Assembly (NCBI GenBank): GCA_041687695.1
Contig: JAWLBL010000003.1
Span: forward strand, 23,660-87,659
DNA: 64,000 nucleotides
Origin: Myxococcota bacterium
GTDB lineage: Bacteria > Myxococcota_A > UBA9042 > PHBI01 > JAWLBL01
Direction of reading: 5' to 3'
The notes under the pieces were generated by a model that saw nothing but the letters and a program-made list of their open reading frames with translations, ran no database searches and was not told the DNA's origin. The position numbers and the translations under genes were made by a program. Positions 11,907 through 57,663 of this stretch are shown here, one piece after another. Each line of letters starts with the position of its first letter. Within the stretch, counting starts at the first letter, position 1.

Positions 11907-11965
11907 CGCCGCCCCCGGTCCATCTGCGCGGCATTGAAGCACATCCCGGCCGGCGCGACGACCGT

Positions 11966-35860: not shown

Positions 35861-36720
35861 GCGAGGTCGCGCTGTCGGTGGTGGTCCCGGTCTTCAACGA
35901 GGGGCCCATCCTGCAGGCCCTCGTGAGCCGGCTCGAGGCCGCGCTGCGCGACCCGGCCCTCGGGGCCGAGGGCCCGACCGAGCTGATCCTGGTCGACGAC
36001 GCCTCGACCGACGGCAGCGGCGACGCTCTGGCCGCCCTGCAGGCCGAAGGGCGCCTCGCGCACCTGCGGCTGCCTCGCAACCGCGGCCAGTGGGGGGCCA
36101 CCCGCGCCGGGCTGCAGGCGGCCCGCGGCCGGTGTGTGGCCGTGCTGGACGGCGACCTGCAGGACCCGCCCGAGCTCCTGCCCCAGGTCTTCGCCGCCCT
36201 GCGCGGCCGGCCCGACCTCGAGGTCGCCTTCGCGGTGAAGGCCTCGCGCGACGACCCGGCCTGGTTCCTGCTGGGCCACCGGGTCTTCTCGCTGGCGCAG
36301 GCCGCGCTCGGCGCCGCCGCCCCGCCCCGCGGGGCCGGCAGCTACTGCGTGATGCGCCGTCCGCTGGCCCAGGCGGTCGCCCGGGTCCCGCTGCGCCAGG
36401 CCAACCTGGCGGCGCTGGTCGCCGCGGCCCGCGCGCGCGGGGCGACCGTCCCCTACGACAAGGCGGCCCGCTACGACGAGCGCTCGCGCGTCGGCCCCTG
36501 GGGCCTGGCCCGCGAGGCCGTCGGCTCGATGCTGGTCACCGGCGCCTTGGAGCGCCTGGCCCTCGCCGCCGGCGTCACCGCCCTGCTGACCGGCGCCGCC
36601 ACCACGCCCGTCGCCCCGCCGCTGGGGCTCGGCCTGGCGCTGGGAGGCCTGGCGCTGACCGGGACCGGCCTCGCCCTCCGCCACCGCCGCAGCGCGCTCC
36701 GCGCCGCGCTGGTCCGCTAG
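35857..36720 (+). CDS. GT2 polyprenyl-phosphate glycosyltransferase (ArnC/GtrB-like)
   Basis: GTGA overlap. VVVPVFNE, VDDASTD, RNRGQ, DGDLQDPPE and two C-terminal TM helices. Confidence 0.88.
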   Translation: MSEVALSVVVPVFNEGPILQALVSRLEAALRDPALGAEGPTELILVDDASTDGSGDALAALQAEGRLAHLRLPRNRGQWGATRAGLQAARGRCVAVLDGDLQDPPELLPQVFAALRGRPDLEVAFAVKASRDDPAWFLLGHRVFSLAQAALGAAAPPRGAGSYCVMRRPLAQAVARVPLRQANLAALVAAARARGATVPYDKAARYDERSRVGPWGLAREAVGSMLVTGALERLALAAGVTALLTGAATTPVAPPLGLGLALGGLALTGTGLALRHRRSALRAALVR

Positions 36721-42693: not shown

Positions 42694-43827
42694 CTAGGAC
42701 AGGGCCATCTCGAAGCCCGGGTGGGGGGTGCCGAGGTCGGGCGCGCCCAGCGGCGCGTCGGGCAGGGTGACGGACAGCAGGGTCATCGGGGTCCGCTGCA
42801 CGAACAAGCCGCGGAAGGCGGGCGCGAGCGCCGAGCCGCGCGGGATCATGGCGCTCATGAAGTGCAGGCGCCGCTCGCGGAGCGTGGCGTACAGGCCCAG
42901 CAGCAGGTCGCGCAGCAGGGCCGGGTCGTCGCCCTCGATCTCGAGGTGGGTCAAGAAGGCGAAGCGGAAGCAGTCGCCCGGGCGGGGCAGGGGCTGGAAG
43001 CCGGCGACCCGGGCGCCCAGATCCCAGGCCAGGCGCTGCCAGCGCACGCCGCCGTGGTAACCCAGGACGCGGGTGCGCTTGAAGGCGCCGGTGTCCCAGG
43101 GCGCGGCGCAGGCGACGATGCGGCCGGCGCGATCGCGGACGAGGTGGAAGTCCGAGAGCCGAAAGCCGGGCCAGGTCGCCAGGCGCCGGGCCAGCAGGTC
43201 GCCCGAGAAGTCGTAGCCGAAGACGCGCTGGCGGTGGCGGCGGTCGAGGAAGGCGACCAGGGCGTCGAGATCGGCCTCGGTGGCGCGGGTGACCGGGCGG
43301 TCGGGGCGGGGCTTGGGCCGCGTGAACTGGACCGAGGTCATGTCGAAGGGGCAGTGGACGCGGGCGACGGGCTGGCCGGCGCGGGCGCCGTCGCGGCCGA
43401 GCAGGGCCGCCATGGCGCGGCGGTTGGAGTCGATGACCACCGTGTAGAACAGCTCGGCGCCGTGGCGGTCGCGGGCGGCCTCGAGCACGGCGCGGTAGCA
43501 CTCGGGGAACACGCGGGCGCCGCGCAGGGCCGCGGAGAAGCGCAGGTCGCAGAGGTAGCCGGCGGGGCGCAGGGCGCCCAGGACGTGGGCCGGGCGCACC
43601 AGCGCGCTGCCGCAGCCGACGACCTGGTCGTCCTGGACCACCGAGAAGGCCTCGGCGGCGGCCTCGACGTGCATGCGGTGGAGCGCGAAGAAGTCGGGGT
43701 CGCGCTCCTGGGTCATGTCGAGCGCGGCCTTCATGTGGATGTCGCGGAAGAGGGCGCACAGGGCCGCGTCGTCCGCGGGCCGGGCGTCGCGGAGGGACCA
43801 GCCGGGGCCCTGGGCGAGGACGGCCAA
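42694..43827 (-). CDS. GNAT-like (tandem acyltransferase fold) protein
   Basis: LRDARPADDAAL, ERDPDFF, VVGCG, GYLCDLRF and a second RATEADLDAL segment. TTG start 6 bp after the upstream stop. Confidence 0.65.
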   Translation of the reverse strand: MAVLAQGPGWSLRDARPADDAALCALFRDIHMKAALDMTQERDPDFFALHRMHVEAAAEAFSVVQDDQVVGCGSALVRPAHVLGALRPAGYLCDLRFSAALRGARVFPECYRAVLEAARDRHGAELFYTVVIDSNRRAMAALLGRDGARAGQPVARVHCPFDMTSVQFTRPKPRPDRPVTRATEADLDALVAFLDRRHRQRVFGYDFSGDLLARRLATWPGFRLSDFHLVRDRAGRIVACAAPWDTGAFKRTRVLGYHGGVRWQRLAWDLGARVAGFQPLPRPGDCFRFAFLTHLEIEGDDPALLRDLLLGLYATLRERRLHFMSAMIPRGSALAPAFRGLFVQRTPMTLLSVTLPDAPLGAPDLGTPHPGFEMALS

Positions 43828-43833
43828 CCCGGC

Positions 43834-45135
43834 TCAGGCCCGGTCGAGCAGGGCGCGGGCGCGGCGGACGGCTCGCGCGCGGGTGGCGCCGAAGGCGTCG
43901 GCGACCTGGGCGGCCGGCGCCTGGCCGTGGGCGGCGGTGGCGGCGGTCTCGAGGCGAGCGGCGGTGGCGGCCGCCTCGGGGGCCTGGGCGACGGCCTCGG
44001 CCAGCGCGTCGCGGACCGGTTGGCCGCCCTCGGCGAGGCAGAAGGCGATGACGCGCCAGGCGAGGTCGGCGTGGCCCTGCTCGTCGCGGGCGATGGCGCC
44101 CAGGGTGGCGGCGACCGCGGGGTCGGCCGCGCGCGCGTGGGAGGCCTGGGCGCGGGCGGCGGCGGCCCCTTCGCCGAGGGCGCCGTCGGTGAAGGACTCG
44201 GCGGCCAGCCGCGCCAGGCGCGCGATGCGGTCGCCGGTCATCGCGGGGGGCAGGGCGGTGGGCCGCGGGGTGACGCGCAGGCCGCCGTAGGCGCCGGCGA
44301 GATCGAAGGAGAGGGCGGCGTGGCGGACCTCGTCGCGGGCCGAGGCGTGGGCGGCGGCGACCAGATCGCGCGGGGCGCCGGCGGCGGCGAGATCGCGGGC
44401 GAGGCCCAGGAAGGAGGCGACGGACTCGTGCTCGTGGCAGCCGGCGTCGAACCAGCGGTCGGCGAGGGCGGCGCGCTCGACCGGGTCGAGGCGCGTCAGG
44501 TCGACCAGGGCCGGGCCGTCGCGGCGGGCGACCAGGTAGTGGGCCTGGGCGGCGGGGTCGTCCATGCGGAGCGGGCGGCCCTCGATGACGGTGGCGCGGA
44601 ACATGCGCTCGAAGCCCAGGGGGCGGACGACCAGGGCCAGGGTCAGCTCGGCGCCGCGGTCGTCGCCGGCGAAGGGCAGGGTGCCGCCGAGGCGCAGCCC
44701 GAAGGCCATGGCGCTGGCCTCGACGGCGCCGTGGACGCCGTGGGAGAGGCCGACCGGGTCGGGCGTGCGGCCGCCGAAGTCGGCCGAGCGGAAGGCGTAG
44801 CCGACCTCGGTGATGACCGGGACCTGGGGCGAGCCCTGCTCGGGCAGGAAGGTGCCGGCGGGGCCGACGGCGAGGCGGAGGTGCTCGAAGCCGACGAGCT
44901 GGGCGGAGGCGCTGCCGCCGAAGGCCGCCGCGTCGGTGGTGAGCGGGGTGGCGACGAGGTCGAGGCCGAAGACGAAGAAGGTGCGCTGGCCGAAGGACAG
45001 GCCCAGGGACAGGCCGTAGTTCCACGGGATGTGGGTGTCCGGGTCGAAGGCGGCGTGGGCGGGCGCGGCGGTGGCGGTCAGGGCGGCGGCGGCCGTGGCG
45101 GCGGCGAGGTGGCGGCGAGGGCGCGAGCGGGTCAT
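43834..45135 (-). CDS. Secreted myxobacterial-type ferritin-like (di-metal) domain protein
   Basis: Signal peptide ending APAHA, beta-rich N-domain, IEGRPL, HEHESVASF, DEVRHA, GALGE and DEQGHA (two ExxH motifs). Confidence 0.8.
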   Translation of the reverse strand: MTRSRPRRHLAAATAAAALTATAAPAHAAFDPDTHIPWNYGLSLGLSFGQRTFFVFGLDLVATPLTTDAAAFGGSASAQLVGFEHLRLAVGPAGTFLPEQGSPQVPVITEVGYAFRSADFGGRTPDPVGLSHGVHGAVEASAMAFGLRLGGTLPFAGDDRGAELTLALVVRPLGFERMFRATVIEGRPLRMDDPAAQAHYLVARRDGPALVDLTRLDPVERAALADRWFDAGCHEHESVASFLGLARDLAAAGAPRDLVAAAHASARDEVRHAALSFDLAGAYGGLRVTPRPTALPPAMTGDRIARLARLAAESFTDGALGEGAAAARAQASHARAADPAVAATLGAIARDEQGHADLAWRVIAFCLAEGGQPVRDALAEAVAQAPEAAATAARLETAATAAHGQAPAAQVADAFGATRARAVRRARALLDRA

Positions 45136-45174
45136 GCGGGGACTCCCGGGGCGTGGGGTGGCCCGCCGCCAGGT

Positions 45175-45190
45175 TGCATCGGGCGTGCCA
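45175..45190 (-). promoter_or_regulatory. sigma54 (-24/-12) promoter upstream of the ferritin-like gene
   Basis: Minus strand TGGCAC-GCCCG-ATGCA versus consensus TGGCAC-N5-TTGCW, about 40 bp before the ATG. Confidence 0.7.
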
Positions 45191-45277
45191 GGCGCCGCAA
45201 GGCGCGCCAGGCGGGAGATCCCGGCGCGGAAGGTGTCAAGTAGGTATACGCTTTGGGCGGCCGGGCCGGCGGAGGTG

Positions 45278-46339
45278 TCAGATCCAGAAGGTCATCTCGT
45301 CGACCCGGGGCTCGGGGGGCGGGGTGGCGCCGCCGGCGGCCGCCCAGTCGCGCAGGGCCTCGATGTGCAGGTGCAGGGTGTCGGCGGGGGTCGAGCTGAA
45401 GTCGGGCGCGCCGTGGTGGCGCAGGGCCTCGCCCTGGATGGCCATGATGTCGACGTCCTGCTGGATGACCTTGCGCGTGTACCAGGGCAATAGACGCGAG
45501 GCGAGCGGGGTCAGGGCGCCGAGCTTGTAGGAGATGAGGGTGAAGACGCGGGTCTCGAAGGGGCGGACCGGGGTGCAGGTCGAGGTGATGACGAAGGCGC
45601 GTCCGCCGCGGTCGGGGTCGCCGAAGACGTAGTCGACCCGGGTGTTGTTGGGCATGTAGAACTTGTCGGTGTGCACCATCGGCAGGCGCCCCGGGTTCAG
45701 GATGCGCTCGGTGAAGCCGATGGAGTCGCGCGGCTGGTCGTAGGTGACGAGCACGCTGTCGGCCGTGCGCTCGACGGTGGTGCGGACGCGCTTTTGGCCG
45801 CGGGTGCGGAACCAGCCCTTGTGGACGAAGACGGTGTGCGGGACGTCCATGAAGTTCTCGACGAGGTGGGTGACCTCGTTGGCGAACATCGTCTCCATGT
45901 AGTAGGCGCCCCAGCCCGGCTCGTCGTGATGGGGCATGGGGAACGGGTCCTTGTCGGGCGGAGCGTCGGGGCCGCCCATCCAGACCCAGACCAGGCCGTC
46001 CTGCTCGCGGGTGGGGAAGGCCTCGAGGCGGCGGTCCGTCGGCGGGCAGGCGTCGGGGCCCTCGGAGGGGACGCCGACGCAGCGGCCCTGGGCGTCGTAG
46101 GTCCAGCCGTGGTAGGGGCAGCCGATCTTGCCGTCGAAGAGGTCGCCGCGGCTGAGCAGGGCGTTGCGGTGCAGGCAGCGGTCGCTCAGGGCGACGGCGC
46201 GGCCGGCGGCGTCGCGCCACAGGACCAGCATCTCGTCCATGACGACGCGGCCCAGCGGCCGACGGGCGGTGACCTGGTGGGACTGGGCGGCGGCGTACCA
46301 GTAGTCCTTGAGCAGCCCGCAGCTGCGGCGCATCGTCAC
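45278..46339 (-). CDS. Rieske non-heme iron oxygenase alpha subunit (VanA/KshA-like)
   Basis: DRCLHR...CPYHGW (Rieske ligands), ENFMDVPHTVFVH and QQD (mononuclear Fe triad). Confidence 0.92.
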   Translation of the reverse strand: MTMRRSCGLLKDYWYAAAQSHQVTARRPLGRVVMDEMLVLWRDAAGRAVALSDRCLHRNALLSRGDLFDGKIGCPYHGWTYDAQGRCVGVPSEGPDACPPTDRRLEAFPTREQDGLVWVWMGGPDAPPDKDPFPMPHHDEPGWGAYYMETMFANEVTHLVENFMDVPHTVFVHKGWFRTRGQKRVRTTVERTADSVLVTYDQPRDSIGFTERILNPGRLPMVHTDKFYMPNNTRVDYVFGDPDRGGRAFVITSTCTPVRPFETRVFTLISYKLGALTPLASRLLPWYTRKVIQQDVDIMAIQGEALRHHGAPDFSSTPADTLHLHIEALRDWAAAGGATPPPEPRVDEMTFWI

Positions 46340-48009
46340 GAGGGCCTCCGGGCGTCGAGCTGGGTCGACAGGGACGCGACGCCCAGCGGCTGGGCGCCCG
46401 GGAAGACGGCGTCCCAGTCGAGGCCGGCGTCGAGGGGGGTCGGCTTGACGTCGCCGGCGCGGACGCCGCGCTGGACCTGGCGCGCGACGTAGCGGGCCCA
46501 GCCGTCGGTGACGCGCACGGCGTCGGGGACCCCCAGCTGCCCCAGGCGCCGGCAGTAGTCGTAGTGGGGGTTGTCGCGCAGGCCGGCCTCGAGGCGACCC
46601 AGGGCGTCGCGCACGGCGGCGGCCGGCGCGTCGGTGTCGACGTACAGGCGGTAGCGGGGCGGGGTGGACGCCAGCGGGGCCAGCAGGGCGAAGCGGTGGG
46701 CGAGGCCGGCCTGGTCGGCGGCGCGGGTCAGGGCCTGGCCGACGTGGTGGGCGTTGAGCTTCTCGCCGGCGCGGTCGCTGCCCTTGTCGAGGCGGCCCTC
46801 GAAGCGGACGCGCGGGGTGCGGCCGACCAGGCCGACGCAGCGGACGACGTCTTTGAGGTGATAGCGGTACAGGCCGCCGCCGGTGGTGATGAGCGGGGAG
46901 TAGGCGCCGCCGGGGCGCAGCTCGTGGGCGAGGAGCGGCCGGGCGGCGGGGCGGTCGAGGTCGATGAACTCGAGGAAGTGGCTGGTGACCGCCAGGACGG
47001 CGCCGGAGGCCTGCGGGGACTCGTCGTCTCCATCCCCTGGGGTGGCGTCGGAGCCGGCGCCCCAGGGGATGGAGACGACGCCCTCGGTGGCCAGCAGGCC
47101 CTTGGGCTGCAGCGGGGTGGCGGGGAACCAGCGGCGCAGGTCGGCCAGCTGATCGCGGGCGGGGCCGTCGGCCCAGCAGGAGACGAGGGCGAGGCGCGGC
47201 CAGAGCAGCTCGCCCGTGGGGGGCGCGCCGTCGGGGACGGCGCGGCGCAGGGCGCGGCGGCGGGCGGGGGGCAGGTCGGCCAGCAGGGCGTCCCAGTCGT
47301 CGGCGATGGCCTGCATCAGCAGGGTCAGGAAGCTGGGGCTCCAGACCGAGATGAGGCCCAGGTCGTCGGCGGCCAGCAGCTCGCGGCAGGTGCGGCGGCG
47401 CCAGGCGGTGACGTCGGGCAGGCGGGCGACCTCGGGGGGGACGGCCAGCAGGCGGCGCAGGGCCAGGCGCTCGAGGGGGCCGAAGTACTCGGTGTCGTCG
47501 TCGAAGCCGATGGGCAGGCCGCCGGCGGTGCGCTGGGCGGCGCGGGTGGCGGGCGAGACGGACCAGTAGCTGCGGGTGCCGCGCAGGGCGGGGCGGCGGG
47601 CGTGGAGGTCGTGCAGCCAGGCGCCGGTGGCGGCCGAGAACTCGGCGCGCAGGGCGGCGGTGTAGGGGACGAGCTTGGCGGCGGCGCTCGAGCCGCTCGA
47701 GCGCTCGAACATCAGGGCGGGGGCGCGGGTCAGGACGCGCTGCTCGCCGGCGGCGACGCGGGAGATCCAGGGAGCCAGCGCGTCGTGGTCGGTGACGGGG
47801 ACGCGGTCCTGGAAGGCGGTGACCGAGTCGATGGCGGAGAAATCGTGGCGGCGGCCGTAGTCGGTGTCGGCGTTGGCGGCGACGGTCTGGCGCAGGCGGG
47901 CGGCCTGGGCGGCGGCGGGGGCGCCGAGGGCCTGGCGGAAGCGGCGGGCGGCGGGGGCGAGCGTGGCCTGCCAGACGGACTGGAGGGCGTGCAGGGCGAG
48001 GTCAGCCAA
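46336..48009 (-). CDS. GH3 family acyl-acid amido synthetase-like protein
   Basis: NADTDYGR, FQDRVP, FERSSGS..KLVPYT, LATEG, FLEF, TTGGGLYRYHLKD, FEGR..GEK and NPHY motifs. Confidence 0.9.
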   Translation of the reverse strand: MADLALHALQSVWQATLAPAARRFRQALGAPAAAQAARLRQTVAANADTDYGRRHDFSAIDSVTAFQDRVPVTDHDALAPWISRVAAGEQRVLTRAPALMFERSSGSSAAAKLVPYTAALRAEFSAATGAWLHDLHARRPALRGTRSYWSVSPATRAAQRTAGGLPIGFDDDTEYFGPLERLALRRLLAVPPEVARLPDVTAWRRRTCRELLAADDLGLISVWSPSFLTLLMQAIADDWDALLADLPPARRRALRRAVPDGAPPTGELLWPRLALVSCWADGPARDQLADLRRWFPATPLQPKGLLATEGVVSIPWGAGSDATPGDGDDESPQASGAVLAVTSHFLEFIDLDRPAARPLLAHELRPGGAYSPLITTGGGLYRYHLKDVVRCVGLVGRTPRVRFEGRLDKGSDRAGEKLNAHHVGQALTRAADQAGLAHRFALLAPLASTPPRYRLYVDTDAPAAAVRDALGRLEAGLRDNPHYDYCRRLGQLGVPDAVRVTDGWARYVARQVQRGVRAGDVKPTPLDAGLDWDAVFPGAQPLGVASLSTQLDARRPS

Positions 48010-48772
48010 CGGCGAGGGCCTTTCGGGGGCGGGTGAGGCGGCGGCGGGCGAGCTTGGCGAGGTAGCTGGAGGCCAGATCGAGGCCGATGTGGCCGAGGCA
48101 GACCAGCTCGTCGCCGTGGGCGTGGCCTGGGTTGCGCTGGGCGAAGTAGGCGACGTCGGGGGCGGCGAGCAGGGCCGGGTCGATGGGGGCGACGTCGTCG
48201 CGCAGGCGGCCGGCGGGGCTGGAGAAGCGGAGCAGGCCGAGGTCGGGGCGCCAGGCGTCGCCGAAGCGCTCGCGGGCGAGGGCGTCCATGACGGCGGCCT
48301 GCCAGGCGGGCGTGGGGCGGTCGTGGCGGGGCCAGTGCTCGGGGAAGTTGCGGGTGAGCAGGAGGTAGGTCTTGTAGCCCTTGGTGATGAGGAACCAGTA
48401 GACGGGCGTCAGCGGGTGGGCGGCCTTGACGCGCATCGTGTAGGCGAGGAAGGCGCGCTGCAGGGCGGTCTGGCCCCAGTAGGCGCGGTCGATGACGGTG
48501 TCGCCCGAGAAGACGCAGACGACGCGGCGGCCGTGGACGGCGCGGTCGTAGACCTGCAGGGTCGAAAAGCCGGCGAGGCCGGCGGCCGGGTCCTCGAGCA
48601 GGATGACGTGGTCCTTGGCGGCGAGATCGCGCTGGAAGGTGGGGCGGTCGACGTCGGCGTAGTAGCGGGCGAACAGGGCCCAAAGGGCGTCCTGGACGTG
48701 GGGCGTCAGGGCGCGGACGGGGACGGTGCGGGCGCGCAGGCGGCCGAGGGTGGGGCGGGGGTCGGTGGTCAT
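48002..48772 (-). CDS. Uncharacterised GNAT-like protein coupled to GH3
   Basis: LFARYY, FQRDL..KD, GFST, FSGDTVID..YWG, YWFLITKGYKTY, NPG..GDELVC. Overlaps both neighbours. Confidence 0.75.
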   Translation of the reverse strand: MTTDPRPTLGRLRARTVPVRALTPHVQDALWALFARYYADVDRPTFQRDLAAKDHVILLEDPAAGLAGFSTLQVYDRAVHGRRVVCVFSGDTVIDRAYWGQTALQRAFLAYTMRVKAAHPLTPVYWFLITKGYKTYLLLTRNFPEHWPRHDRPTPAWQAAVMDALARERFGDAWRPDLGLLRFSSPAGRLRDDVAPIDPALLAAPDVAYFAQRNPGHAHGDELVCLGHIGLDLASSYLAKLARRRLTRPRKALAVG

Positions 48773-50430
48773 GCGAGGGCCAGGGCGCGGGCGGCGTCGC
48801 GGTCGAGGCGGCGCTGGGTGAAGCGGCGGAGGGCGCCGAAGGTGGCCTTGACCAGCGGGGTCGAGGCGGCGACGTCGCGCTGGAACGCGAGCAGGGCGGG
48901 GCGGTCGGCCATGTCGTAGGTGAGGATGCCGGGGTAGAAGAGGCCGCCCTGCAGCGCGTGGCCGCCGTGCATCATCTGGTCGTCGATGTGGCGCATCCAG
49001 CGGCCGACCTCGGTCGAGGCCATGGTGGCGTGGCGCCAGTAGGGGGCCGAGGAGCGGCCGCCGGTGGTGGTGACGAGGTCGAAGCGGGCGCGGCTGTCGG
49101 GTGAGAGGATGGGGACGTACTCGACGCGGGTGTTGAAGGGGGCGGCGTAGTAGAAGTCGGGCGGGGCGTCGCGGAGGAAGGCGACGGTCTCGCGGACGGT
49201 GGTCGGGGTCTCGCCCGGGAAGCCGACGATGACGGTGACCAGGGTCGTCAGGCCGGCCTCGCGGCAGTGCAGGAGGCCGCGGCGCATGGCCTGGACGGTG
49301 GCGCGCTTGTTCATGTGGTCGAGCATGCGCTGGCTGCCCGACTCGACGCCGATCTGGACCTGGTGGCAGCCGGCGGCCTTCATCAGGCGGACGGTGTCGA
49401 GGTCGTCGAGGTCGTCGGCGCGGGCGTAGCAGATCCAGCGCAGGCGGGTGCCGTCGGCGAGCAGGCGCTCGCAGAGCTCGACGAGGCGCCGCTTGGGCAT
49501 GGTGAAGAGGCTGTCCAAGCAGGTGACGTACTCGGCGCCGTCGTCGGCGAGGGCGCGCCAGTCGGCGGCGATGCGGGCGGCGCTCTTGGTGCGGAACTTG
49601 GTGTCGTCGAACAGGTACGGGTAGTTGCAGAACGAGCAGCGGTAGGGGCAGCCGCGGACCGACTCGTAGTGGACCATGCGGAAGCGGCGGCCGTGGACGG
49701 CGCCGGCGAGGCGCCAGTCGGGCTCGGGCAGGTCGTCGAGGCTGAGCGAGCGCGGGACGCCGCTGTGGAGGACGTCGGTGGCGCCGGCGCGCTCGAGGCG
49801 GCCGCCGTCGGGCGGGGTCAGGCGCTGGTAGCCGCTGCGGATCCAGGCGGCGAGGGCGGGGACGAGGCGCTCGCCGTAGCCGACGGCGAGGACGTCGAGG
49901 CCGGGGCAGCCGGGCCATTCGCGGTGCAGGATGCCGGCCAGGGCGCCGCCCGCGACCACGCGGTTCCAGGGCCGGTCGAGCATGCGCACCATCGGCTCGA
50001 GCTCGCTCAGATCCCGCAGCAGCGTGGTCGAGGCGAAGACGCAGTCGGTCGCGCCCAGCAGGCGCTCGCGGCGCGCCGGGTCGGCGTACAGCTCGGCGTA
50101 GGTGGCGACCTCGAAGCCCAGCCCCTCGTCGCGCAGCAGGGTGCACAGCGAGACCTCGGTCAGCTCGGGCGCGTCCAGGGTCGGGTCCTCGGTGAAGAAG
50201 CGCTCGACCGCCGCCCGATAGGGCGCGCGCCGGAACGCAGCCGACCGCCTCAGGCGTTGGCTCGCCACCAGGTGCTCGGCCGCCAGCACCTTGTACTGCA
50301 CGTCCAGCCACGCCCCGCTCGACGCCCGGAACGCCTCGACCTGCTTCCTCACCGCCTGGACGAGCGAGCGCTCCTTGACGCTGAGCAGTCCCCCGGTCAC
50401 CACCAGGACCCTGGGTTGTCGCTGAATCAA
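48769..50430 (-). CDS. Cobalamin-binding-type radical SAM enzyme
   Basis: RGCPYRCSFC (CX3CX2C), GVESGS, IVGFPGET, and an N-terminal VVAGG...VGYGE B12-binding-like domain. TTG start after GGAG. Confidence 0.88.
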   Translation of the reverse strand: MIQRQPRVLVVTGGLLSVKERSLVQAVRKQVEAFRASSGAWLDVQYKVLAAEHLVASQRLRRSAAFRRAPYRAAVERFFTEDPTLDAPELTEVSLCTLLRDEGLGFEVATYAELYADPARRERLLGATDCVFASTTLLRDLSELEPMVRMLDRPWNRVVAGGALAGILHREWPGCPGLDVLAVGYGERLVPALAAWIRSGYQRLTPPDGGRLERAGATDVLHSGVPRSLSLDDLPEPDWRLAGAVHGRRFRMVHYESVRGCPYRCSFCNYPYLFDDTKFRTKSAARIAADWRALADDGAEYVTCLDSLFTMPKRRLVELCERLLADGTRLRWICYARADDLDDLDTVRLMKAAGCHQVQIGVESGSQRMLDHMNKRATVQAMRRGLLHCREAGLTTLVTVIVGFPGETPTTVRETVAFLRDAPPDFYYAAPFNTRVEYVPILSPDSRARFDLVTTTGGRSSAPYWRHATMASTEVGRWMRHIDDQMMHGGHALQGGLFYPGILTYDMADRPALLAFQRDVAASTPLVKATFGALRRFTQRRLDRDAARALALA

Positions 50431-50504
50431 ATCACGCTCCGCGCACGCTCGCTTTCGAGAGCCGCCATGATAGAGATTGGTCGCGTCCCTAGGAAGCCCC
50501 ACCC

Positions 50505-51533
50505 GTGAACGCCGCTCCCGCCCCGATCCCTCCGCCCGCCGACGCCCTCGAGGCCGCCCTCGACGCCGCCCAGGACGCCGACGTCGCCGCCGGCCCTCGC
50601 CTGAGCCGCGCCTCCGTCCCCCGCGACCTCCTCGGCAAGGCCAGCGTCCCCGCCCTGCTGCGCTGGGCCGCCCTCGACTGGCTCCTCATCGCCGTCTGCT
50701 GGCTCAGCCTCGCCCTCACGCCGCCCTGGCTCTACCCCGCCTGGGTCTTCCTCGTCGCCGGCCGCCTCCACGCCCTCGGCGTCCTCCTCCACGACGCCTG
50801 CCACCTGCGCCTGCCCCGCAAGACCCCCGCCGCCCGCCTCCTCGAGCTCCTCGCCGGCTACCCCATCGCGTCCACCCTCGACGCCATGCGCTACCACCAC
50901 CTGCGCCACCACCGCGACAGCGGCATGCCCACCGACCCCTACTTCAAGGCCTCCGTCCGCGACAGCCGCCCCATGTTCCTCCTCATGTGGCTCCGCAGCC
51001 TCCTCCTCGTCCCCTGGTGGACCCTCCGCGCCCCCTTCGGCCTGCTCGCCCTCGCCGCGCCCCCCCTCCGCAACTTCTACGGCCGCGCCTTCCTCCAGGA
51101 CCGCTCCGGCGACGACCTCACCCACCACCCCGAGCTCCTCGCCTGCGCCCGCGCCGAGCTCGGCCAATTCGCCTTCCAGGCCGCCGTCCTCGCCGCCGCC
51201 CTCGCCTGGCCCGGCCCCGTCACCTTCGGCTACCTCGTCCCCGCCGTCGTCACCGGCCTCCTCGCCGGCTACCGCATCCTGCTCGAGCACGACTACACCC
51301 CCGCCGCCGACCGCAAGATGACCACCATCCTGGCCACCACCCAGGACCACCACCTCGCCCCCTGGGGCCGCCTCTTCTTCGCCCCCCACCACGTCGGCCA
51401 CCACGTCGTCCACCACCTCCACCCCCAGGTCGCCTTCTGGCACCTCCCCCGCCTGCGCGCCTGGTACCGCCAGCACCACCCCTCCCTGTACCCGCCCGAG
51501 TACCCCAAGAACCTCCGCCGCGAGGCCGCGTGA
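50505..51533 (+). CDS. Membrane fatty acid desaturase family protein
   Basis: His boxes HDACH, HHLRHH, EH and HHVVHH, with TM helices. Confidence 0.9.
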   Translation: MNAAPAPIPPPADALEAALDAAQDADVAAGPRLSRASVPRDLLGKASVPALLRWAALDWLLIAVCWLSLALTPPWLYPAWVFLVAGRLHALGVLLHDACHLRLPRKTPAARLLELLAGYPIASTLDAMRYHHLRHHRDSGMPTDPYFKASVRDSRPMFLLMWLRSLLLVPWWTLRAPFGLLALAAPPLRNFYGRAFLQDRSGDDLTHHPELLACARAELGQFAFQAAVLAAALAWPGPVTFGYLVPAVVTGLLAGYRILLEHDYTPAADRKMTTILATTQDHHLAPWGRLFFAPHHVGHHVVHHLHPQVAFWHLPRLRAWYRQHHPSLYPPEYPKNLRREAA

Positions 51534-52879
51534 TCCGCAGGATCCTCGCCACCCTGCTCCGCCGCGCCCACCGCCGCCTCGAGGCCGCCGACGCCGCCCC
51601 CCGCGCCGCCCAGGCCGCCGTCCACCGCCGCCTCGCCCGCGCCCTGGCCGGCACCCAGGCCGCCGCCCTCCACCCCGCCGCCGCCTGGGCCGACCTCGAC
51701 GCCTGGCGCGACCATGTCCGCCTCACCACCCACGCCGACTACGCCCCCCTCATCGCCCAGGCCCTCGCCGCCCCCCTCCCCGGCGCCTTCGAGCGCCGCC
51801 CCACCGCCGCCTTCGCCACGTCTACCAGCGGCGCCAAGCACACCCCCTACACCCGCGCCCACTTCGCCAGCCTCCGCGCCTTCCAATCCGCCGTCCTGGG
51901 CCAGGCCCTGGTCGGCCGCGATCTGACCGCCCTCCTCGACGGCCGCGCCCTGGTCGTCCAAGGCAGCCTCGAGCTCGCCCGCACCCCCGGCGGCGCCCTG
52001 ACCGGCTACTCGACCGCCCTCATGGTCGCCACCGCCCCCTGGATGTTGCGCCGCAGCATGAGCCCTCCGCTCGAGGTCCTGCGCGCCCCCGACCCGGCCA
52101 CCCGCCTGTCCGGCGTCCGCGACGCTCTCGTCACCGCCCGCCCCACCGCCCTGTCCGGCATCCCCGAGTACGTCGTCGGCGCCCTGCGCCACCTGCTCGC
52201 CGGCCCCGACGCCGAAGCCGTCCGCGACGCGCTGGCCGCCGTGCGCCTGTACGCCTGGTCCGGCACCCCGCTGGGCCCGCTGCGCGCCTTCCTGCAGGCC
52301 CACCTCGCCCCCGGCGCCGCCCTCTTCGACGCCGTCAGCGCCACCGAGGGCCCGCTGGGCGTGCAGGCCGAGGCCCCCGGCGTCTACCGCCTGGCCCTGC
52401 CGCACGTCCTGCTGCTGTTCGTCGCAACCGACGACCCCGACCACCGCGCCCTCGCCCACCAGCTGACGCCCGGCCGCGACTACGCCGTGCACCTGGGCAG
52501 CTTCTCGGGCCTTTCGGGCTACGCCACCGGCGACCGCGTCCACGTCCTGTCGACCGACCCGGTGCGCTTTGCCCTCCTGCCCCGCCAGCTCGACGTAGAG
52601 GCCGCCTGGCGTGCCCTCGGCCCCGAGACGACCGACTTCCGGCTCTTCCGCGACGCCACGGCCGGCCTCACGGCCCTGATCGAGCGCCCCAGCGCCCCCG
52701 ACGCCGCCGCGCTGGCCACCCTGGCCGCGCTGGCCGGCGCCTCGACGGCCACCGCGCACCTGCTGCCCCCCGGCCACCTCACCCGCGCCGCCTTCACCTT
52801 CAACCCCCTGGGCCTGGTCAAGCTCCCCTGGCTCTCCTCGCGTCCCGACCTCGCGGCGCGTATCCTGGCCCTGCCATGA
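51530..52879 (+). CDS. Divergent GH3 family protein
   Basis: GTGA overlap. FATSTSGAKHTPYT, SGIP, SATEG and SGLSGYATGD motifs; shortened C-terminus. Confidence 0.75.
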   Translation: MIRRILATLLRRAHRRLEAADAAPRAAQAAVHRRLARALAGTQAAALHPAAAWADLDAWRDHVRLTTHADYAPLIAQALAAPLPGAFERRPTAAFATSTSGAKHTPYTRAHFASLRAFQSAVLGQALVGRDLTALLDGRALVVQGSLELARTPGGALTGYSTALMVATAPWMLRRSMSPPLEVLRAPDPATRLSGVRDALVTARPTALSGIPEYVVGALRHLLAGPDAEAVRDALAAVRLYAWSGTPLGPLRAFLQAHLAPGAALFDAVSATEGPLGVQAEAPGVYRLALPHVLLLFVATDDPDHRALAHQLTPGRDYAVHLGSFSGLSGYATGDRVHVLSTDPVRFALLPRQLDVEAAWRALGPETTDFRLFRDATAGLTALIERPSAPDAAALATLAALAGASTATAHLLPPGHLTRAAFTFNPLGLVKLPWLSSRPDLAARILALP

Positions 52880-53871
52880 CGACCGCCTCCCCCACCGCCC
52901 TGCGCGCCCAGGCCCGCGAGGGCGCCTACCCCGTCCCCGGGCGCCTCAACCTGGCCCTCACCCTGGCGCAGGTCGGCGGCTCGGTGGCCCTGCTCTGGCT
53001 GGCCTCGCACGCGACCAGCGCCCTCGTCCTCGCCCTGGCGGTGGCCGCCTTCGCCTTCCTGATGCAGATGGGCTTCTCGCTCATCCACGAGGCCGAGCAC
53101 GACAAGCTCCACCCCAGCCGCCTCGTCAACGACGCCCAGGGCGTCCTGCTGGCGGCCCTGTTCCCCGGCAGCTACCAGTTCATGAAGGTGGCCCACCTGG
53201 CCCACCACCGAAAGAACCGCGCCGACGCCGAGCTGGTCGACTACTGGCGCCCCGGTGAGCGGCCCTGGCTCAAGGGGCTGCAGTACTACCTGCTCATCTG
53301 CGGCCTGGTCTGGGTGGGCGTCCCGCTGCTCACCGTCGTCATCGCCCTGACGCCCGAGGCGTTGCTGCGCCGCAACAATCGGCCGGCCGGGGCCGCGCCC
53401 GCGGACGAGACCAAGGCCTCGTCGGCCCAGCTCTACCTGGCTTTTTTGCGCGAGGCCCGTCCCTGGCGCGTCCGCGCCGAGCTGGCCTTCACCCTGGCCC
53501 TGTGGTGGGCCCTGTTCGCCGGGCTGGGGCTGACCTGGTCGGCGGTCGGCTGGTGTTACGCCGCCTTCGCCTTCAGCTGGGCCAGCCAGCAGTACATCTA
53601 CCACATCCGCACCCCGCGCCATCTCGTCGAGGGGGCGCTGAACCTGCGCCTGCACGCGCCGCTGCGCCTGCTGTACCTGAACTTCAACTACCACCTGACC
53701 CATCACCGCGCCCCCAAGGTGCCGTGGCTGCACCTGCCCGCCGCGACCGGCGAGCCGCCGTCCCAGCCGTACTGGCGCACCTACCTGAGGCTGTGGGCCC
53801 CGCCGCAGCCCGTGGCGATGGCCCACCCGGTCGAGCACCAGACCAAGGGGCCGCTGCCGCCGCGCGCGTGA
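52876..53871 (+). CDS. Membrane fatty acid desaturase family protein
   Basis: ATGA overlap. HEAEH, HLAHH, QYIYH and NYHLTHH His boxes. Confidence 0.9.
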   Translation: MTTASPTALRAQAREGAYPVPGRLNLALTLAQVGGSVALLWLASHATSALVLALAVAAFAFLMQMGFSLIHEAEHDKLHPSRLVNDAQGVLLAALFPGSYQFMKVAHLAHHRKNRADAELVDYWRPGERPWLKGLQYYLLICGLVWVGVPLLTVVIALTPEALLRRNNRPAGAAPADETKASSAQLYLAFLREARPWRVRAELAFTLALWWALFAGLGLTWSAVGWCYAAFAFSWASQQYIYHIRTPRHLVEGALNLRLHAPLRLLYLNFNYHLTHHRAPKVPWLHLPAATGEPPSQPYWRTYLRLWAPPQPVAMAHPVEHQTKGPLPPRA

Positions 53872-53888: not shown

Positions 53889-54058
53889 CGAGGCCGAGAG
53901 CGTGGCCGTGGCGGACCGGAGGCCGTGGCCGTGGCCGTGAGCCGTGGCCGAGGCCGTGAGCCGTGGCCGAGGCGGTGGCCGTGGCCGCGAGCCGAGGCCG
54001 TGAGCCGTGGCGGAGGCGGTGGCCGTGGGCGTGCCGTGAGCCGTGGCCGAGCCTGGCC
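53889..54058. repeat. Degenerate GCCGTG/GCCGAG hexamer array with GAGCCGTG units
   Basis: Fills the gap between the convergent desaturase and hydrolase genes. Confidence 0.8.
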
Positions 54059-54059
54059 G

Positions 54060-54968
54060 TCAGGTCGCTGCGCTGGCCTGGGCGCGTAGCCAGGCGGCGA
54101 CGGCGCGCCACAGGGGTTGGCTGGCGGTCGAGGTGACGAGGCCCATGTGGTCGGGCGGGCGCTGGGCCAGCTCGGGGAGGTCGCCGCCGGGGCCGAGGCG
54201 CCAGCCGTGGCGGTGGGGCAGGCGGGCGCCGAAGGCCAGGGCCGCGGCGGGGCGGGCGAGCAGGCGGTCGCCGTCGCTGGAGACGTGCAGGACCGGGCAG
54301 CGCACGGCCTCGAGGCCGGCGTGGTAGTCGAAGCCGTCGCGGGCGTGCCAGCGGCCGGTGAAGGCGAAGCCGCACAGGTCGCGCCAGTACTCGGGGGCCT
54401 CGTCGGCCGGGCCGATGCGCAGCCGGCGCGCCGGCAGGTGCCCCGCGGCGCGGACCAGGCCGGTCGACAGGCGCAGGACGGAGGCCTTGGCCGCCCACAG
54501 GAGCGGCGAGGGCTCGAAGCGGCGCGCCCAGAGGCCGACGCCCACCGCCGCGAAGGCCGCCACCGGCGCGTCGGGGTGCCGCCCCAGCCAGGCCAGCGCG
54601 GTGTGGCCGAACAGGCTGTGGCCCAGCAGCGTCACCGGGCCGGCGTCCAGGCCTCGCGCCAGCTCCAGGTAGATCGCCGTGTCCGCCACGAGGTCGTCGT
54701 AGCCCCAGCGTCCGCCCTCGCGCGGGGTCGGCCCGCTGGCGCCGTGGCCGCGCAGATCGGGCACCAGCACCCGCAGCCCGGCGTCCACCAGCGCGCCCGC
54801 CAGGCTGGGCCGGTCGGGGTGCGCCAGGGTCCGCCGGTCGGCCATCATCGCGTGCCCGGCCACCACCACGCCCGCCGGGGTCCCTGCGGGCGCGTAGTCC
54901 AGCACGCTCAGCCGCCAGCCGTCGGCGGCGCGCAGCGTGTGAGTGGCCGGCTTCGGCAGCGTCGTCAC
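54060..54968 (-). CDS. Alpha/beta hydrolase
   Basis: RAADGWRL, DLRGHG, GHSLFG nucleophile elbow, SDGDRL and DHMGL. GTGA-coupled to the upstream gene. Confidence 0.85.
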   Translation of the reverse strand: MTTLPKPATHTLRAADGWRLSVLDYAPAGTPAGVVVAGHAMMADRRTLAHPDRPSLAGALVDAGLRVLVPDLRGHGASGPTPREGGRWGYDDLVADTAIYLELARGLDAGPVTLLGHSLFGHTALAWLGRHPDAPVAAFAAVGVGLWARRFEPSPLLWAAKASVLRLSTGLVRAAGHLPARRLRIGPADEAPEYWRDLCGFAFTGRWHARDGFDYHAGLEAVRCPVLHVSSDGDRLLARPAAALAFGARLPHRHGWRLGPGGDLPELAQRPPDHMGLVTSTASQPLWRAVAAWLRAQASAAT

Positions 54969-55885
54969 GCCGCGCCGCCCGCCGCGAAGCGCACTCGGCA
55001 CACCCGTGGGCCTCCGCGGTCCAGCCGCAGCTCGCGCAGCGCCACCCGCGCCAGCGCCGGCGCGCCGTCGACCTCGGTCAGCGACAGCTCGAGCAGCGCG
55101 CCCTCGCCCATGTCGCGCAGCTTCACCTCGGTCGCGAAGTTCCCCAGCGACCAGGCCACCACCCGCCCGTCGTCCAGCCGCTCGAGCGGCTGCGGCAGGT
55201 GGCTGTGGTGCCCCGCGATCAGCGCGTAGCCCGACGGCACCCGCGCGCGCTGCCCCGCCCGGGCCCGCCGCTCGAGCTCGTGCCCCCAGTGCGGGAACGC
55301 CAGGTGCACCCCCGGCTCGGCCGGAGCGCCGGGGTCGCGCCGCGCCACCATGGGCGCCGGGCCGTTGGCCCACTCGGTCCACGCGGTGACCGTCACGCCA
55401 GGCCGGAGCGTCACCCGAGGCCGCGCGGTGGCCCCGACGTGCGCGAAGCCGCCGGCCTCGAGCCGCCGCAGCGTCGCCTCGAAGGCCTGGGGCCCGTAGT
55501 CCGGCGCGTGGTTGTTGGCGACGCCCAGCACCCAGCGCGAAGGCGGCGCCAGGGCGGCCAGCCGGTCGAGCACGCTGGGCAGGTGCTTTTGCAGGAACGG
55601 GAACCACGGCGCGTCGGTGAAGACGCCCTCGAGGTTGGCGACCACGTGGTCGGCCCGGCCGATGGCCGCCGCCACGTCGGGCGCGACCTCGAGCCGCCGC
55701 CACATCAGCGGCATCACGTCGCCCAGCACCACCACCCGCGCGGTCACCGGCGCCTCGGCGGCCAGCACCACCTCGGCGTCCAGCGCGCCCGCCTTCAGCT
55801 CGGGCGTCGGCGCGCCGGCCCACATCCGCCACGCGAAGCCCGCCAGCTCACGCGCCGGGTACGGGCTCCGGGGCAGGCGGATCAC
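54965..55885 (-). CDS. CapA/PGA_cap family metallophosphoesterase
   Basis: LGDVM, ANLEG, ANNHAPDYG, HWGHE, GHHSH and SLGNF motifs. Confidence 0.85.
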   Translation of the reverse strand: MIRLPRSPYPARELAGFAWRMWAGAPTPELKAGALDAEVVLAAEAPVTARVVVLGDVMPLMWRRLEVAPDVAAAIGRADHVVANLEGVFTDAPWFPFLQKHLPSVLDRLAALAPPSRWVLGVANNHAPDYGPQAFEATLRRLEAGGFAHVGATARPRVTLRPGVTVTAWTEWANGPAPMVARRDPGAPAEPGVHLAFPHWGHELERRARAGQRARVPSGYALIAGHHSHLPQPLERLDDGRVVAWSLGNFATEVKLRDMGEGALLELSLTEVDGAPALARVALRELRLDRGGPRVCRVRFAAGGAA

Positions 55886-57435
55886 TTGCCGGCGTTGGAG
55901 GCCGCGTCGCCCGCCTGCGCCGTCGGGGCGGCGTCGGGCGCGGAGGGCGCCTTGGGCTTGAACTTGTCGGGGTTGGCCTTGTACTCGGCCCGCCACTCGC
56001 CGAAGTACTTCTCGACGTTCGCGGCGTACTCGTCGCCCGACTCCTCGAGCAGCACCACGATCTGCTGCACCTTGGCGTCCAGCTCGATGGCGTCCAGCTG
56101 ACCGGCGGCGTGCTCGGCCTGCGCCTTGGCGACAAGATCCAGGCCCTGCGACGCGTTGGCGGCGAGGCGGCCCAGCGTCAGCTCCTCGCCCAGGAAGTCG
56201 TTCACCGAGACGTCTTCGGGCTTGCCGACCAGCTTGGCCAGCTCGTCGAGCTGCGGCTTGGCCTCGGCGCCCGCGGTGGCCTTGAGGCAGATGATGCTGA
56301 TGGCCCGCACGATGCGGTTGGGGTCGGCGACGCGCTTGGCGAAGGTGGGCGCCGCGGCCTTGGCGTGCCCGTGCTTGCGGAGATCCAGGCACAGGTCGAG
56401 CGCCGACTTGGCGGGGTCCTCCTCGGCCTGGTCGTAGATCTTGTCGTCGGCGAACGCGGTCAGCACCTCGTCCAGCTTGGCCGGCCCCTCGATCTGCACC
56501 AGGCTGACCGCCGCCAGCCAGCGGTCCTGCGGGTTGCTGCCCTTCATGACGTCGAGCAGCTCGGCCGACAGCGCGGCCGGCTTGGCCTTGACCGCCGGGT
56601 CCTCGCCCATCTCGATGGCCGCGTTGAAGGCCGCGGCGCGGATCTCGCCGTCGAGCTGGTCGTTGCGGTACAGCCGCATCAGGTAGGCGGCGGCCGCCGG
56701 GGTCTTCATGTTGCGCACCAGCTCGACGTGGTGCAGCTGCACGCCGATGCGCTCGTGGGTGAGCTCGAGGCCGCGCAGCAGCAGCTCGAGGGCCTGCGGG
56801 TCGCCGCCCTTGGCCAGGTACTCGGCCATGCGGTCGACGATGAAGCCGTGGCTGACCAGGATGGCCGCGCCCTGCCAGCCGTACTTGCCGAGGTCCGCGA
56901 TCTGGCCCGAGGTGATGCGCTGGCCGATCTTGTCCTGCACCTCGGCCTGCGGCGTCTCCCAGGTGATGTCGCCGAAGGTCCACGCCGCCACGCGCTGCTG
57001 GACCTGGTCCTTCTGCTCGGCCGTCAGGTAACGGTCGAGCATCATCATCAGCGCGTCCTTGGCGTCGTACTGGGCCTCGCTGCGCTTGTCGACGTGGTCG
57101 ACCAGCTCACGGAGCAGGCCCGCGACCACCGCGTCACGCTGGTCGCTCATGTCGTCGAGCATGTTGCGCACGCGCATCGGCTGCCCGCGCTCGACGACGA
57201 CCTCGAGCCCGCGGATGCGCGTCTCGAGCGGCTGCTTCGGGTCGGTGACCACCTCGGTCATCCGCTCGAGGCCGATCTCGTTGTGCGTCCACAGCTGCAG
57301 GTCTTCTTCCGTGACCGGCCCGTTGCACGCGGGCGACAGCGCCGCAGCGGACAGCATCGAGAGGCCCACGACCGCCCGGCCCACGCGGGCCGCGCGAGCG
57401 GGCAGGCGGGTCAGCGGGTTCCAGCGCAGCGACAT
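55882..57435 (-). CDS. HEAT-repeat putative lipoprotein
   Basis: Signal with LSPAC. All-helical repeats (LETRIRGLE, GEIRAAAF, NRIVRAISI). Confidence 0.75.
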   Translation of the reverse strand: MSLRWNPLTRLPARAARVGRAVVGLSMLSAAALSPACNGPVTEEDLQLWTHNEIGLERMTEVVTDPKQPLETRIRGLEVVVERGQPMRVRNMLDDMSDQRDAVVAGLLRELVDHVDKRSEAQYDAKDALMMMLDRYLTAEQKDQVQQRVAAWTFGDITWETPQAEVQDKIGQRITSGQIADLGKYGWQGAAILVSHGFIVDRMAEYLAKGGDPQALELLLRGLELTHERIGVQLHHVELVRNMKTPAAAAYLMRLYRNDQLDGEIRAAAFNAAIEMGEDPAVKAKPAALSAELLDVMKGSNPQDRWLAAVSLVQIEGPAKLDEVLTAFADDKIYDQAEEDPAKSALDLCLDLRKHGHAKAAAPTFAKRVADPNRIVRAISIICLKATAGAEAKPQLDELAKLVGKPEDVSVNDFLGEELTLGRLAANASQGLDLVAKAQAEHAAGQLDAIELDAKVQQIVVLLEESGDEYAANVEKYFGEWRAEYKANPDKFKPKAPSAPDAAPTAQAGDAASNAGK

Positions 57436-57663
57436 CGTCTCTCCTCTTCGGACACCCGCGTCGACGCCTGCGGACGGGGGCCACGGAGGCGGATGATCCG
57501 GCGCGCACTTCGGGGTGTCAAGCGAGCGACGAGGCCCCGGCTACACTTTCGAGCCGTCCAAGTCGTTCCCTTCTCACCACTTTTCAAGCGGGGCCCGCTG
57601 CTCGTATGGTGGGGCCGGCTCGTCGGGACGCCCCCACAACCCCTGCCGAGCCGGGAGCGCAGG

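Follow-up and report, generated by a model that had tools for sequence, protein, structure and literature searches.

A patchily distributed GH3-GNAT gene system in a Myxococcota bacterium that may make amide-linked lipids independently of carrier proteins

The closest characterised system to the one described here is the OlsH/OlsI ornithine-lipid pathway of Singulisphaera acidiphila. According to the report on this pathway (PMC12493201), the bacterial GH3 protein OlsH uses ATP to form N-acyl-ornithine from a free fatty acid, independently of coenzyme A (CoA) and acyl carrier protein (ACP). OlsH is the only bacterial GH3 pathway in the literature that we found, against thousands of homologues, and the accessible part of a 2026 review on amino-lipids (PMC12971839) mentions GH3 for OlsH only. 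In this work, a stretch of 64,000 nucleotides from a Myxococcota bacterium (contig JAWLBL010000003.1; hereafter, the window) was analysed. A block of genes in this window encodes two GH3 proteins (GH3-A and GH3-B), two GNAT-fold proteins (GNAT1 and GNAT2), a radical S-adenosylmethionine (SAM) enzyme (rSAM), a Rieske oxygenase, two histidine-box membrane oxidases (des1 and des2) and a ferritin-like protein. A preliminary description of this block proposed a carrier-free acyl-amide pathway and took bacterial GH3 proteins to be poorly characterised. The latter statement is corrected by the characterisation of the amino-lipid synthase OlsH. The former is retained in that the gene set is real and is co-inherited with oxidative and radical tailoring genes, but not in the ligase role of GH3-B and the membership of the ferritin-like gene. 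The block is one representative of a patchily distributed system, the genes of which occur in shuffled order across several bacterial phyla, and the core of this system is GH3-A, GNAT1 and GNAT2.

Core genes and their distribution

When GTDB was scanned with GNAT1 as a query, 18 loci were obtained, from Myxococcota, Bdellovibrionota, Gemmatimonadota, Chloroflexota, Elusimicrobia and Pseudomonadota and from one Thermoanaerobaculia record. GH3-A is present in 16 of these 18 loci, the Rieske oxygenase in 9, GNAT2 in 8 and des2 in 6. Within the phylum, the GNAT1 profile matches 52 of the 401 sampled genomes, and about 30 of these are of the cluster type. The 48 phylum loci that were fetched cover 49 of 63 other places, the remaining 14 of which all score less than 160 bits. 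GH3-A lies within about 10 kb of GNAT1 in 22 of the 32 loci scoring at least 170 bits and in none of the 16 loci scoring below this threshold, which was chosen after the data had been seen. Several of the loci of at least 170 bits without GH3-A are cut off by the end of a contig or belong to genomes in which GH3-A is encoded at another place. The divergent branch of GNAT1 (L068-L080 and L038-L040) is solitary: none of the 16 low-scoring loci has a GH3 gene or a tailoring gene in its vicinity.

With GNAT2 added to the search, 26 metagenome loci were found; six duplicates were dropped, and 46 non-redundant loci containing GNAT1 and GH3-A (core loci) were compared. GNAT1 is located immediately upstream of GH3-A in 30 of the 46 core loci. 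GNAT2 is present in 30/46, the Rieske oxygenase in 28/46, des2 in 12/46 and des1 in 5/46, while the rSAM subfamily of the window is present in 2/46 and other B12 radical SAM enzymes in 15/46. All 46 core loci contain tailoring genes, which are only oxygen-dependent in 30, only of the radical SAM type in 12 and of both types in 4, with no locus having neither. The co-occurrence that the preliminary description proposed to check is borne out, because the homologues cluster together in unrelated genomes beyond chance.

The system is also found in cultured bacteria. Burkholderia arboris carries GNAT1, GNAT2, GH3-A, the Rieske oxygenase, des1 and des2, together with a PAP2-desaturase fusion and a lipase-like gene, and a Citrobacter plasmid carries a version of the system with five radical SAM enzymes. 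Acinetobacter baumannii, which is outside the 46 core loci, carries the three core genes alone, interleaved with tripartite HlyD-MFS-OEP efflux genes, and no tailoring query matches its locus. Three records labelled as plasmids (L126 and L128), with sizes of 3.5-4.1 Mb, resemble mislabelled chromosomes. A variant without GNAT2 in the locus (L015, L041, L042, L048-L051 and L053-L056) contains GNAT1, an AurF-like protein, a ferritin-like protein, a ferredoxin, up to three Rieske genes and FA_hydroxylase, as well as a hexapeptide acyltransferase, GH3 and a methyltransferase. In many loci (L006, L010, L018 and L109-L116), GNAT2 is followed by a fusion of RnfD-like, FG-GAP and ASPIC/UnbV domains, which resembles the UnbU/UnbV proteins of enediyne clusters; no polyketide synthase (PKS) is seen in these loci.

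GH3-A is assigned to the GH3 acyl-acid amido synthetases. It has the N-terminal, middle and C-terminal GH3 domains and contains the P-loop SSGSS, the Glu of motif II, motif III GLYRY with its Asp, the GR/GEK hinge and the C-terminal Lys. Motif II is KGxx[AS]TE in all 41 cluster GH3 proteins and in none of the 65 other bacterial GH3 proteins compared. The Tyr of motif II is present in 57 of these 65 proteins, as compared with none of the 41 members of the GH3-A subfamily. The P-loop pattern S-G-[ST] is present in 36/41 and 52/65, respectively. Prediction of a complex between GH3-A and GNAT1 gives a score of 0.05 against a mark of 0.32, which is evidence neither for nor against this complex.

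The two proteins previously described as GNAT-like both have a predicted GNAT fold, and they are better regarded as core, probably amide-forming enzymes. GNAT1 has 927 homologues and matches no Pfam or NCBIfam family, and a profile search of PDB gives no match. Its model, with a predicted local distance difference test (pLDDT) score of 94.9, shows a GNAT fold with a best Z of 12.7 and no standout match, LasI and FeeM being among the tied structures. In the Atlas, the homologues of GNAT1 and GNAT2 fall in hypothetical or GNAT clusters only.

GNAT2 matches Pfam GNAT, and its model has a pLDDT of 94.0. The matches listed by Foldseek are all N-myristoyltransferases (NMTs), with TM-scores of about 0.6. 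The model of GNAT2 is aligned with yeast NMT with a VIA Z of 22.4 (root-mean-square deviation 3.9; 315 aligned), tied with bacterial MAB_4324 (Z 21.8), and this alignment extends to the C-terminus, reaching residue 377 of the predicted model against residue 455 of yeast NMT. The C-terminus of GNAT2 is FEMALS, and in 116 of 125 homologues the chain stops no more than two residues from an EMAL-type motif. According to PMC7048800, the C-terminal carboxylate acts as the base in NMT. By analogy, the fixed C-terminus of GNAT2 fits a C-terminal carboxylate base. However, NMT and NMT_C are absent from the 12 families matched by the 125 GNAT2 homologues at E ≤ 0.1. GNAT2 may therefore work like NMT, but membership of the NMT family is not claimed, because no match to NMT is detected at the sequence level.

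The degenerate GH3-B and the tailoring enzymes

GH3-B is probably not a ligase, because its clade has lost the P-loop Ser-Gly that is needed by OlsH. In OlsH, the Ser at the corresponding P-loop position (Ser115) is essential, since the S115A protein is inactive (PMC12493201). The GH3-B clade was examined in an alignment of 13 rows, which consists of GH3-B of the window and 12 of its 15 relatives, the three left out being short fragments. Neither the P-loop pattern S-G-[ST] nor the GR..EK hinge is present in any of the 13 rows, one of which is a fragment without the P-loop region. Thus, the proposal that both GH3 proteins are stand-alone ligases fits the motifs of GH3-A, but not those of the GH3-B clade. 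Most members of this clade retain the Glu of motif II, the Asp of motif III and the last Lys.

The match of GH3-B to Pfam GH3 is weak and covers the N-terminal domain only, and its best match in NCBIfam is the OlsH family NF052613, with 55 bits against a cut-off of 620. An exhaustive search gives 15 clusters of GH3-B relatives at E ≤ 1e-30, and a word-indexed search gives one close homologue with 49% identity. In a quick tree of 56 of the 119 rows, GH3-B forms one clade with a support of 100 in the SH-like approximate likelihood ratio test (SH-aLRT) and groups with generic GH3 proteins, not with GH3-A, although this clustering is partly built in, because the rows were chosen with a GH3-B profile. 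Judged from these comparisons, GH3-B did not arise by recent duplication of GH3-A but belongs to another GH3 lineage. Conservation of the clade over the full length at 29-52% identity argues against simple decay of GH3-B.

No orthologue of GH3-B is found in 400 genomes of the phylum, in which other matches do not exceed 98 bits, and no relative is confirmed in a metagenome scan with a four-row alignment. The genomic context of GH3-B elsewhere is known from locus L099 alone, which was found by the scan with GNAT2. This locus is on an unrelated contig with a GC content of 45% and encodes, in this order, a Rieske oxygenase, GNAT2, GH3-B, rSAM (52% identical to rSAM of the window), a CapA-type phosphoesterase and a HAD hydrolase. 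A second GH3-B member (P0247) and a GNAT2 (P0197) are both on contigs with a length of 28246, which is suggestive only.

The tailoring enzymes retain the residues expected for their families. The Rieske protein has intact ligands (CxH-CxxH at 55-78 and DxxHxxxxH at 165) and is assigned to the Rieske non-haem iron oxygenases; its homologues in the core loci are up to 72% identical, and its best named family is the sterol demethylase SdmA, with 85 bits against 600. A reductase with a FAD_binding_6 domain, which could have been the electron donor of the Rieske oxygenase, is not found in the source genome. Both des1 and des2 have three histidine boxes plus an extra His and are therefore assigned to the membrane di-iron desaturases/hydroxylases. 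Orthologues of des1 are found in 9 of 400 genomes and adjoin GNAT2 in 5 of these 9; in the metagenome loci with upstream DNA, des1 is immediately upstream of GNAT2 in 8 of 10, including one near-duplicate. These results show that des1 usually pairs with the closest GNAT2 clade.

The radical SAM domain of rSAM is identified from CxxxCxxC at 261 and the match to Pfam Radical_SAM. Its N-terminal match to the B12-binding domain, 21 bits, is below the cut-off of 32 bits, and the orthologue in L099 has no such match, while the best family and PDB matches of rSAM include B12 enzymes. The best NCBIfam match is the PhpK family TIGR04479, with 166 bits against a cut-off of 600. Orthologues of rSAM are found in 5 of 400 genomes, three of which are of one genus, and all five have a cluster-type GNAT1. 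GH3-B is not found in any of these five genomes, and therefore rSAM does not require GH3-B.

Possible products and rival explanations

The genes, their motifs, the predicted folds and the co-inheritance are established, and we infer from them all substrates, the sequence in which the enzymes act, the class of product and what GH3-B does. The most likely product, to which we give an even chance, is an amide-linked lipid made without a carrier protein. A lipid product is favoured because PAP2, FA_hydroxylase, MMPL fusions, FadL-like porins and lipase-like proteins recur among the neighbours. PAP2 is present in 6/46 core loci, FA_hydroxylase in 6/46 and a lipase-like hydrolase in 4/46; the fusion partner of MMPL is GNAT1 in L060 and a radical SAM enzyme in L065, and a FadL-like porin is encoded at two loci (L007 and L061). 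The predicted fold and the fixed C-terminus of GNAT2 also agree with those of long-chain N-acyltransferases. In such a pathway, GH3-A would link an amine-carrying head group with a free fatty acid by ATP-driven adenylation and amide formation, as OlsH does, and acyl-CoA or acyl-ACP would be the donor from which GNAT1 and GNAT2 attach additional acyl chains. The product would be desaturated or hydroxylated by des1, des2 and the Rieske oxygenase, and methylated or otherwise modified at C-H bonds by rSAM. GH3-B would bind and present a lipid intermediate, or regulate a partner, rather than adenylate, and the CapA-type enzyme would dephosphorylate a head group.

Several points weigh against this lipid pathway. 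The core is without a substrate-supplying gene, and nothing points to the acid or to the amine. The core of A. baumannii, amid a tripartite efflux pump, suits a secreted small molecule, and the variant with an AurF-like protein and several Rieske genes could act on aromatic acids. The best NCBIfam match of GH3-A is the OlsH family NF052613, but with 45 bits against a cut-off of 620, and the chemistry of GH3-A may differ, given that the Tyr of motif II is replaced. Residual activity of GH3-B is possible, given that Glu, Asp and Lys are retained. The best named family of des1 is GntB, an arginine hydroxylase of guanitoxin synthesis (60 against 380 bits), and one genome (G210) has des1 and GNAT2 without any match to GNAT1. 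Related genomes are not independent samples, and the co-occurrence counts are therefore descriptions, not tests.

A small secreted acyl- or aryl-amide, such as a signal or an antibiotic, is a possible, if rather doubtful, product of the core; the oxygenases and rSAM would then act on its short acyl or aromatic moiety and not on a membrane lipid. The efflux genes of A. baumannii, the MFS proteins and UnbU/UnbV-like fusions encoded downstream of GNAT2 in many loci, the patchy distribution with one plasmid copy, the AurF-like neighbour in 10/32 loci and the match of des1 to GntB are consistent with such a product, as is the use of benzoates by plant GH3.12. However, the membrane histidine-box oxidases, PAP2, MMPL fusions and FadL-like porins indicate lipids, and the cluster of the window has neither a precursor-supply gene nor an evident self-resistance gene. 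Acylation of the N-terminus or a lysine of a protein or peptide by the NMT-like GNAT2, with the other enzymes supplying or tailoring an unusual acyl chain, is unlikely. Such lipidation would agree with the fold and the fixed C-terminus of GNAT2, which are like those of NMT and Eis, and with the LolCDE-like ABC genes that adjoin some loci. It does not agree with the lack of an NMT match among the 125 homologues, with a Z that is tied with those of non-NMT tandem GNATs, or with the variants that have no GNAT2 in the locus; and the four intergenic gaps hold three ATG-started open reading frames of 13-15 codons, none of which is an evident precursor.

A ceramide-like lipid, for which a sphingoid base of other origin would be acylated and then modified by these enzymes, is suggested by the PAP2_3, FA_hydroxylase, Mpo1-like and CMAS-like neighbours, genes of types that occur in sphingolipid pathways too. 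The source genome has an ACP gene directly before an Spt/BioF-like gene for a pyridoxal phosphate enzyme (L123:1014-2622, G000:C8), which is a candidate divergent serine palmitoyltransferase. However, this gene scores below all cut-offs for serine palmitoyltransferase (326 against 640 bits), and five other genomes or records bearing the system match it at 32-38% only, so that we regard a ceramide-like product as very improbable. It is hardly credible that rSAM is a P-methyltransferase in a pathway to a phosphinate or phosphonate amide. PhpK is the best NCBIfam family of rSAM, a phosphoesterase gene is nearby, and the source genome has a true phosphoenolpyruvate (PEP) mutase (389 against 320 bits), but the score against PhpK is far below the cut-off, PEP mutase is encoded on another contig, and no match to it is found in any of the five other rSAM-carrying genomes, four of which are at least 90% complete. 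The PEP mutase is fused to a nucleotidyltransferase (G000:C8:182909-184519, L129), is over the TIGR02320 cut-off and lies amid housekeeping genes, with no evident phosphonate pathway adjoining.

The amide-linked lipid may more specifically belong to a multiply acylated class, although we hold this only tentatively and think it rather unlikely to be right in all its parts. This new class would be built with no carrier protein by a GH3 protein and a pair of GNATs, of which GNAT2 would be a bacterial counterpart of NMT. Its decoration would alternate between oxygenases and B12 radical enzymes from one host to the next, and in the variant of the window a catalytically dead GH3 would serve as a lipid-presenting partner of the new rSAM subfamily. 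If so, the system would represent a new class of membrane or secreted lipids, a bacterial NMT-like acyltransferase bearing on the origin of NMTs, a conserved pseudo-GH3, and pairs of enzymes that possibly perform one type of C-H chemistry, either using oxygen or not. The system is widespread and has cultured carriers, so that it is directly testable.

Locus layout, neighbouring genes and known systems

The positions of the genes are summarised in Table 1. The window has a GC content of about 75%, and its best protein matches are mostly Myxococcota-type records. Codon-position GC and translation confirm nine intact open reading frames in two divergent arms, with third-position GC of 0.96-0.99, in agreement with the two coupled divergent operons and the gap of about 75 bp that had been reported. 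This gap (50431-50504) is 74 bp long if rSAM starts at TTG 50430, a start that is adopted because it fits the rSAM orthologues. The reported overlaps of start and stop codons are likewise found: 4 bp for rSAM/GNAT1, 8 bp for GNAT1/GH3-A and 4 bp for GH3-A/Rieske on the minus strand, and 4 bp each for des1/GH3-B and GH3-B/des2 on the plus strand. The Rieske gene is separated from the ferritin-like gene by 142 bp and the latter from GNAT2 by 6 bp. Pfam and NCBIfam back the gene assignments, and no gene attains the cut-off of any named enzyme family. A scan for sigma70-like promoters gives no site in the divergent gap. The gap at 45136-45277, ahead of the ferritin-like gene, has an exact TTGACA in an AT-richer patch with no scored -10 site, and the ferritin-like gene and GNAT2 may have a promoter of their own here.

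Table 1. Genes of the block and the neighbouring phosphoesterase gene (positions in the window)
Gene or product	Position	Strand	Assignment	Basis
GNAT2	42694..43827	-	Tandem-GNAT acyltransferase; core gene	Pfam GNAT, predicted fold
Ferritin-like di-iron protein	43834..45135	-	Signal-peptide-like N-terminus	Motifs, weak Rubrerythrin match
Rieske non-haem iron oxygenase (VanA_C type)	45278..46339	-		Pfam Rieske and VanA_C, ligands intact
GH3-A	46336..48009	-	Adenylating amide ligase (predicted), cluster-specific subfamily; core gene	Three GH3 Pfam domains, motifs
GNAT1	48002..48772	-	256-aa single-domain GNAT-fold protein, unnamed family; core gene	Predicted model
rSAM	48769..50430	-	Probably cobalamin-dependent (class B type); member of a rare, system-linked subfamily	Pfam Radical_SAM, CxxxCxxC
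des1	50505..51533	+	His-box membrane di-iron oxidase	Pfam FA_desaturase, His boxes intact
GH3-B	51530..52879	+	Conserved degenerate GH3, likely pseudo-adenylase	Pfam GH3, N-terminal only, weak
des2	52876..53871	+	Second His-box membrane di-iron oxidase/desaturase	Pfam FA_desaturase, His boxes intact
CapA/PGA_cap-type metallophosphoesterase	54965..55885	-	Outside the span of the preliminary description	All five metal motifs

The CapA-type phosphoesterase probably belongs to a sub-module with GH3-B and rSAM, as judged from one independent locus: it shares 35% identity over 299 aa with the product of the gene directly after GH3-B and rSAM in L099. At 1e-15, none of the 106 other class genomes matches it. 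Its gene is part of a run at 54060-57521, in which a HEAT-repeat lipoprotein-like gene, the CapA-type gene and an alpha/beta hydrolase gene follow one another with overlaps of 4 bp each, and the sole sigma70-like site of the scan (57521, minus strand) heads this run. The hydrolase gene (54060-54968) is rejected as a member of the system; it is convergent to the block and absent from all 46 core loci. Homologues of the hydrolase occur in 16 of the 106 class genomes and do not track with the system, G393 being the only one of them among the GNAT1-positive genomes.

The ferritin-like protein has ExxH motifs at 269 and 352. Its gene had been counted as a part of the cluster, but it is found in 0/46 core loci, while homologues occur in 29 of the 106 other class genomes. 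One genome (G006) has three ferritin-like copies at 0.7-3 Mb from its cluster, one weak match is near a GNAT1 that is not of the cluster type (L038), and in many loci the Rieske gene is directly followed by GNAT2, with no ferritin-like gene between them. The ferritin-like gene is probably a passenger inserted between the Rieske gene and GNAT2.

Elsewhere in the window, two intergenic arrays (53901-54060 and 60429-60590) each contain about 27 copies of a degenerate hexamer of the GCCGTG type, which may be an intergenic repeat specific to the lineage. A purine-rich unit of 43 bp occurs three times at 5562-5698, with 93% similarity between its copies, upstream of a polysaccharide biosynthesis gene. 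The regions 393-16646 and 33743-36720 contain ordinary surface-polysaccharide genes (glycosyltransferases, UDP-sugar dehydrogenase, epimerases and DegT aminotransferases), and an epimerase-DegT fusion is encoded among such genes of the window.

The preliminary description noted the lack of ACP, fatty acyl-AMP ligase (FAAL), ketosynthase (KS) and non-ribosomal peptide synthetase (NRPS) domains, and in the Pfam search none of the scanned window genes matches an ACP, AMP-binding, KS or condensation family. In this respect, the locus is unlike the NRPS, PKS and FAAL-ACP clusters, such as the polyyne clusters, because no ACP or peptidyl carrier protein, AMP-binding, KS or condensation domain is matched here. 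The best-scoring named families of rSAM, des1 and the Rieske oxygenase are PhpK/BcpD, GntB and SdmA, with the low scores given above, and none of the partners in their pathways is matched among the cluster genes. By sequence, the plant proteins JAR1 and GH3.12 are the nearest solved structures to GH3-A (E of about 1e-10 to 1e-8) and have motifs I and III in common with it, but the similarity is weak, motif II differs, and GH3-A is encoded in a bacterial operon. GNAT2 resembles eukaryotic NMT and Eis-type tandem GNATs in that its model is aligned over the whole length, including the C-terminus, and in the fixed length of its C-terminus, but it is only about 10% identical to NMT, matches no NMT family of Pfam and sits in a biosynthetic cluster.

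Like OlsH (PMC12493201), GH3-A is a bacterial GH3 protein with three nucleotide-binding motifs that would form an amide from a free fatty acid and ATP, using neither ACP nor CoA. Unlike OlsH, GH3-A has motif II KGxxATE without Tyr, and both GH3 proteins of the window score far below the cut-off of the OlsH family, so that by this measure neither qualifies as OlsH. The partners also appear to differ, being two GNATs instead of the alpha/beta-hydrolase O-acyltransferase OlsI, which shares an operon with OlsH, together with extensive oxidative and radical tailoring enzymes and a degenerate second GH3; the alpha/beta hydrolase gene near the block (54060-54968) is convergent to it. The gene set had been regarded as undescribed, and our literature search, in which subscription journals were mostly not covered, finds no paper on it. 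We regard the system as a real pathway without a published description, which would proceed in the manner of amino-lipid synthesis initiated by GH3 but is a distinct variant of it, and the copy in the window carries in addition a rare degenerate GH3 and a rare rSAM subfamily.

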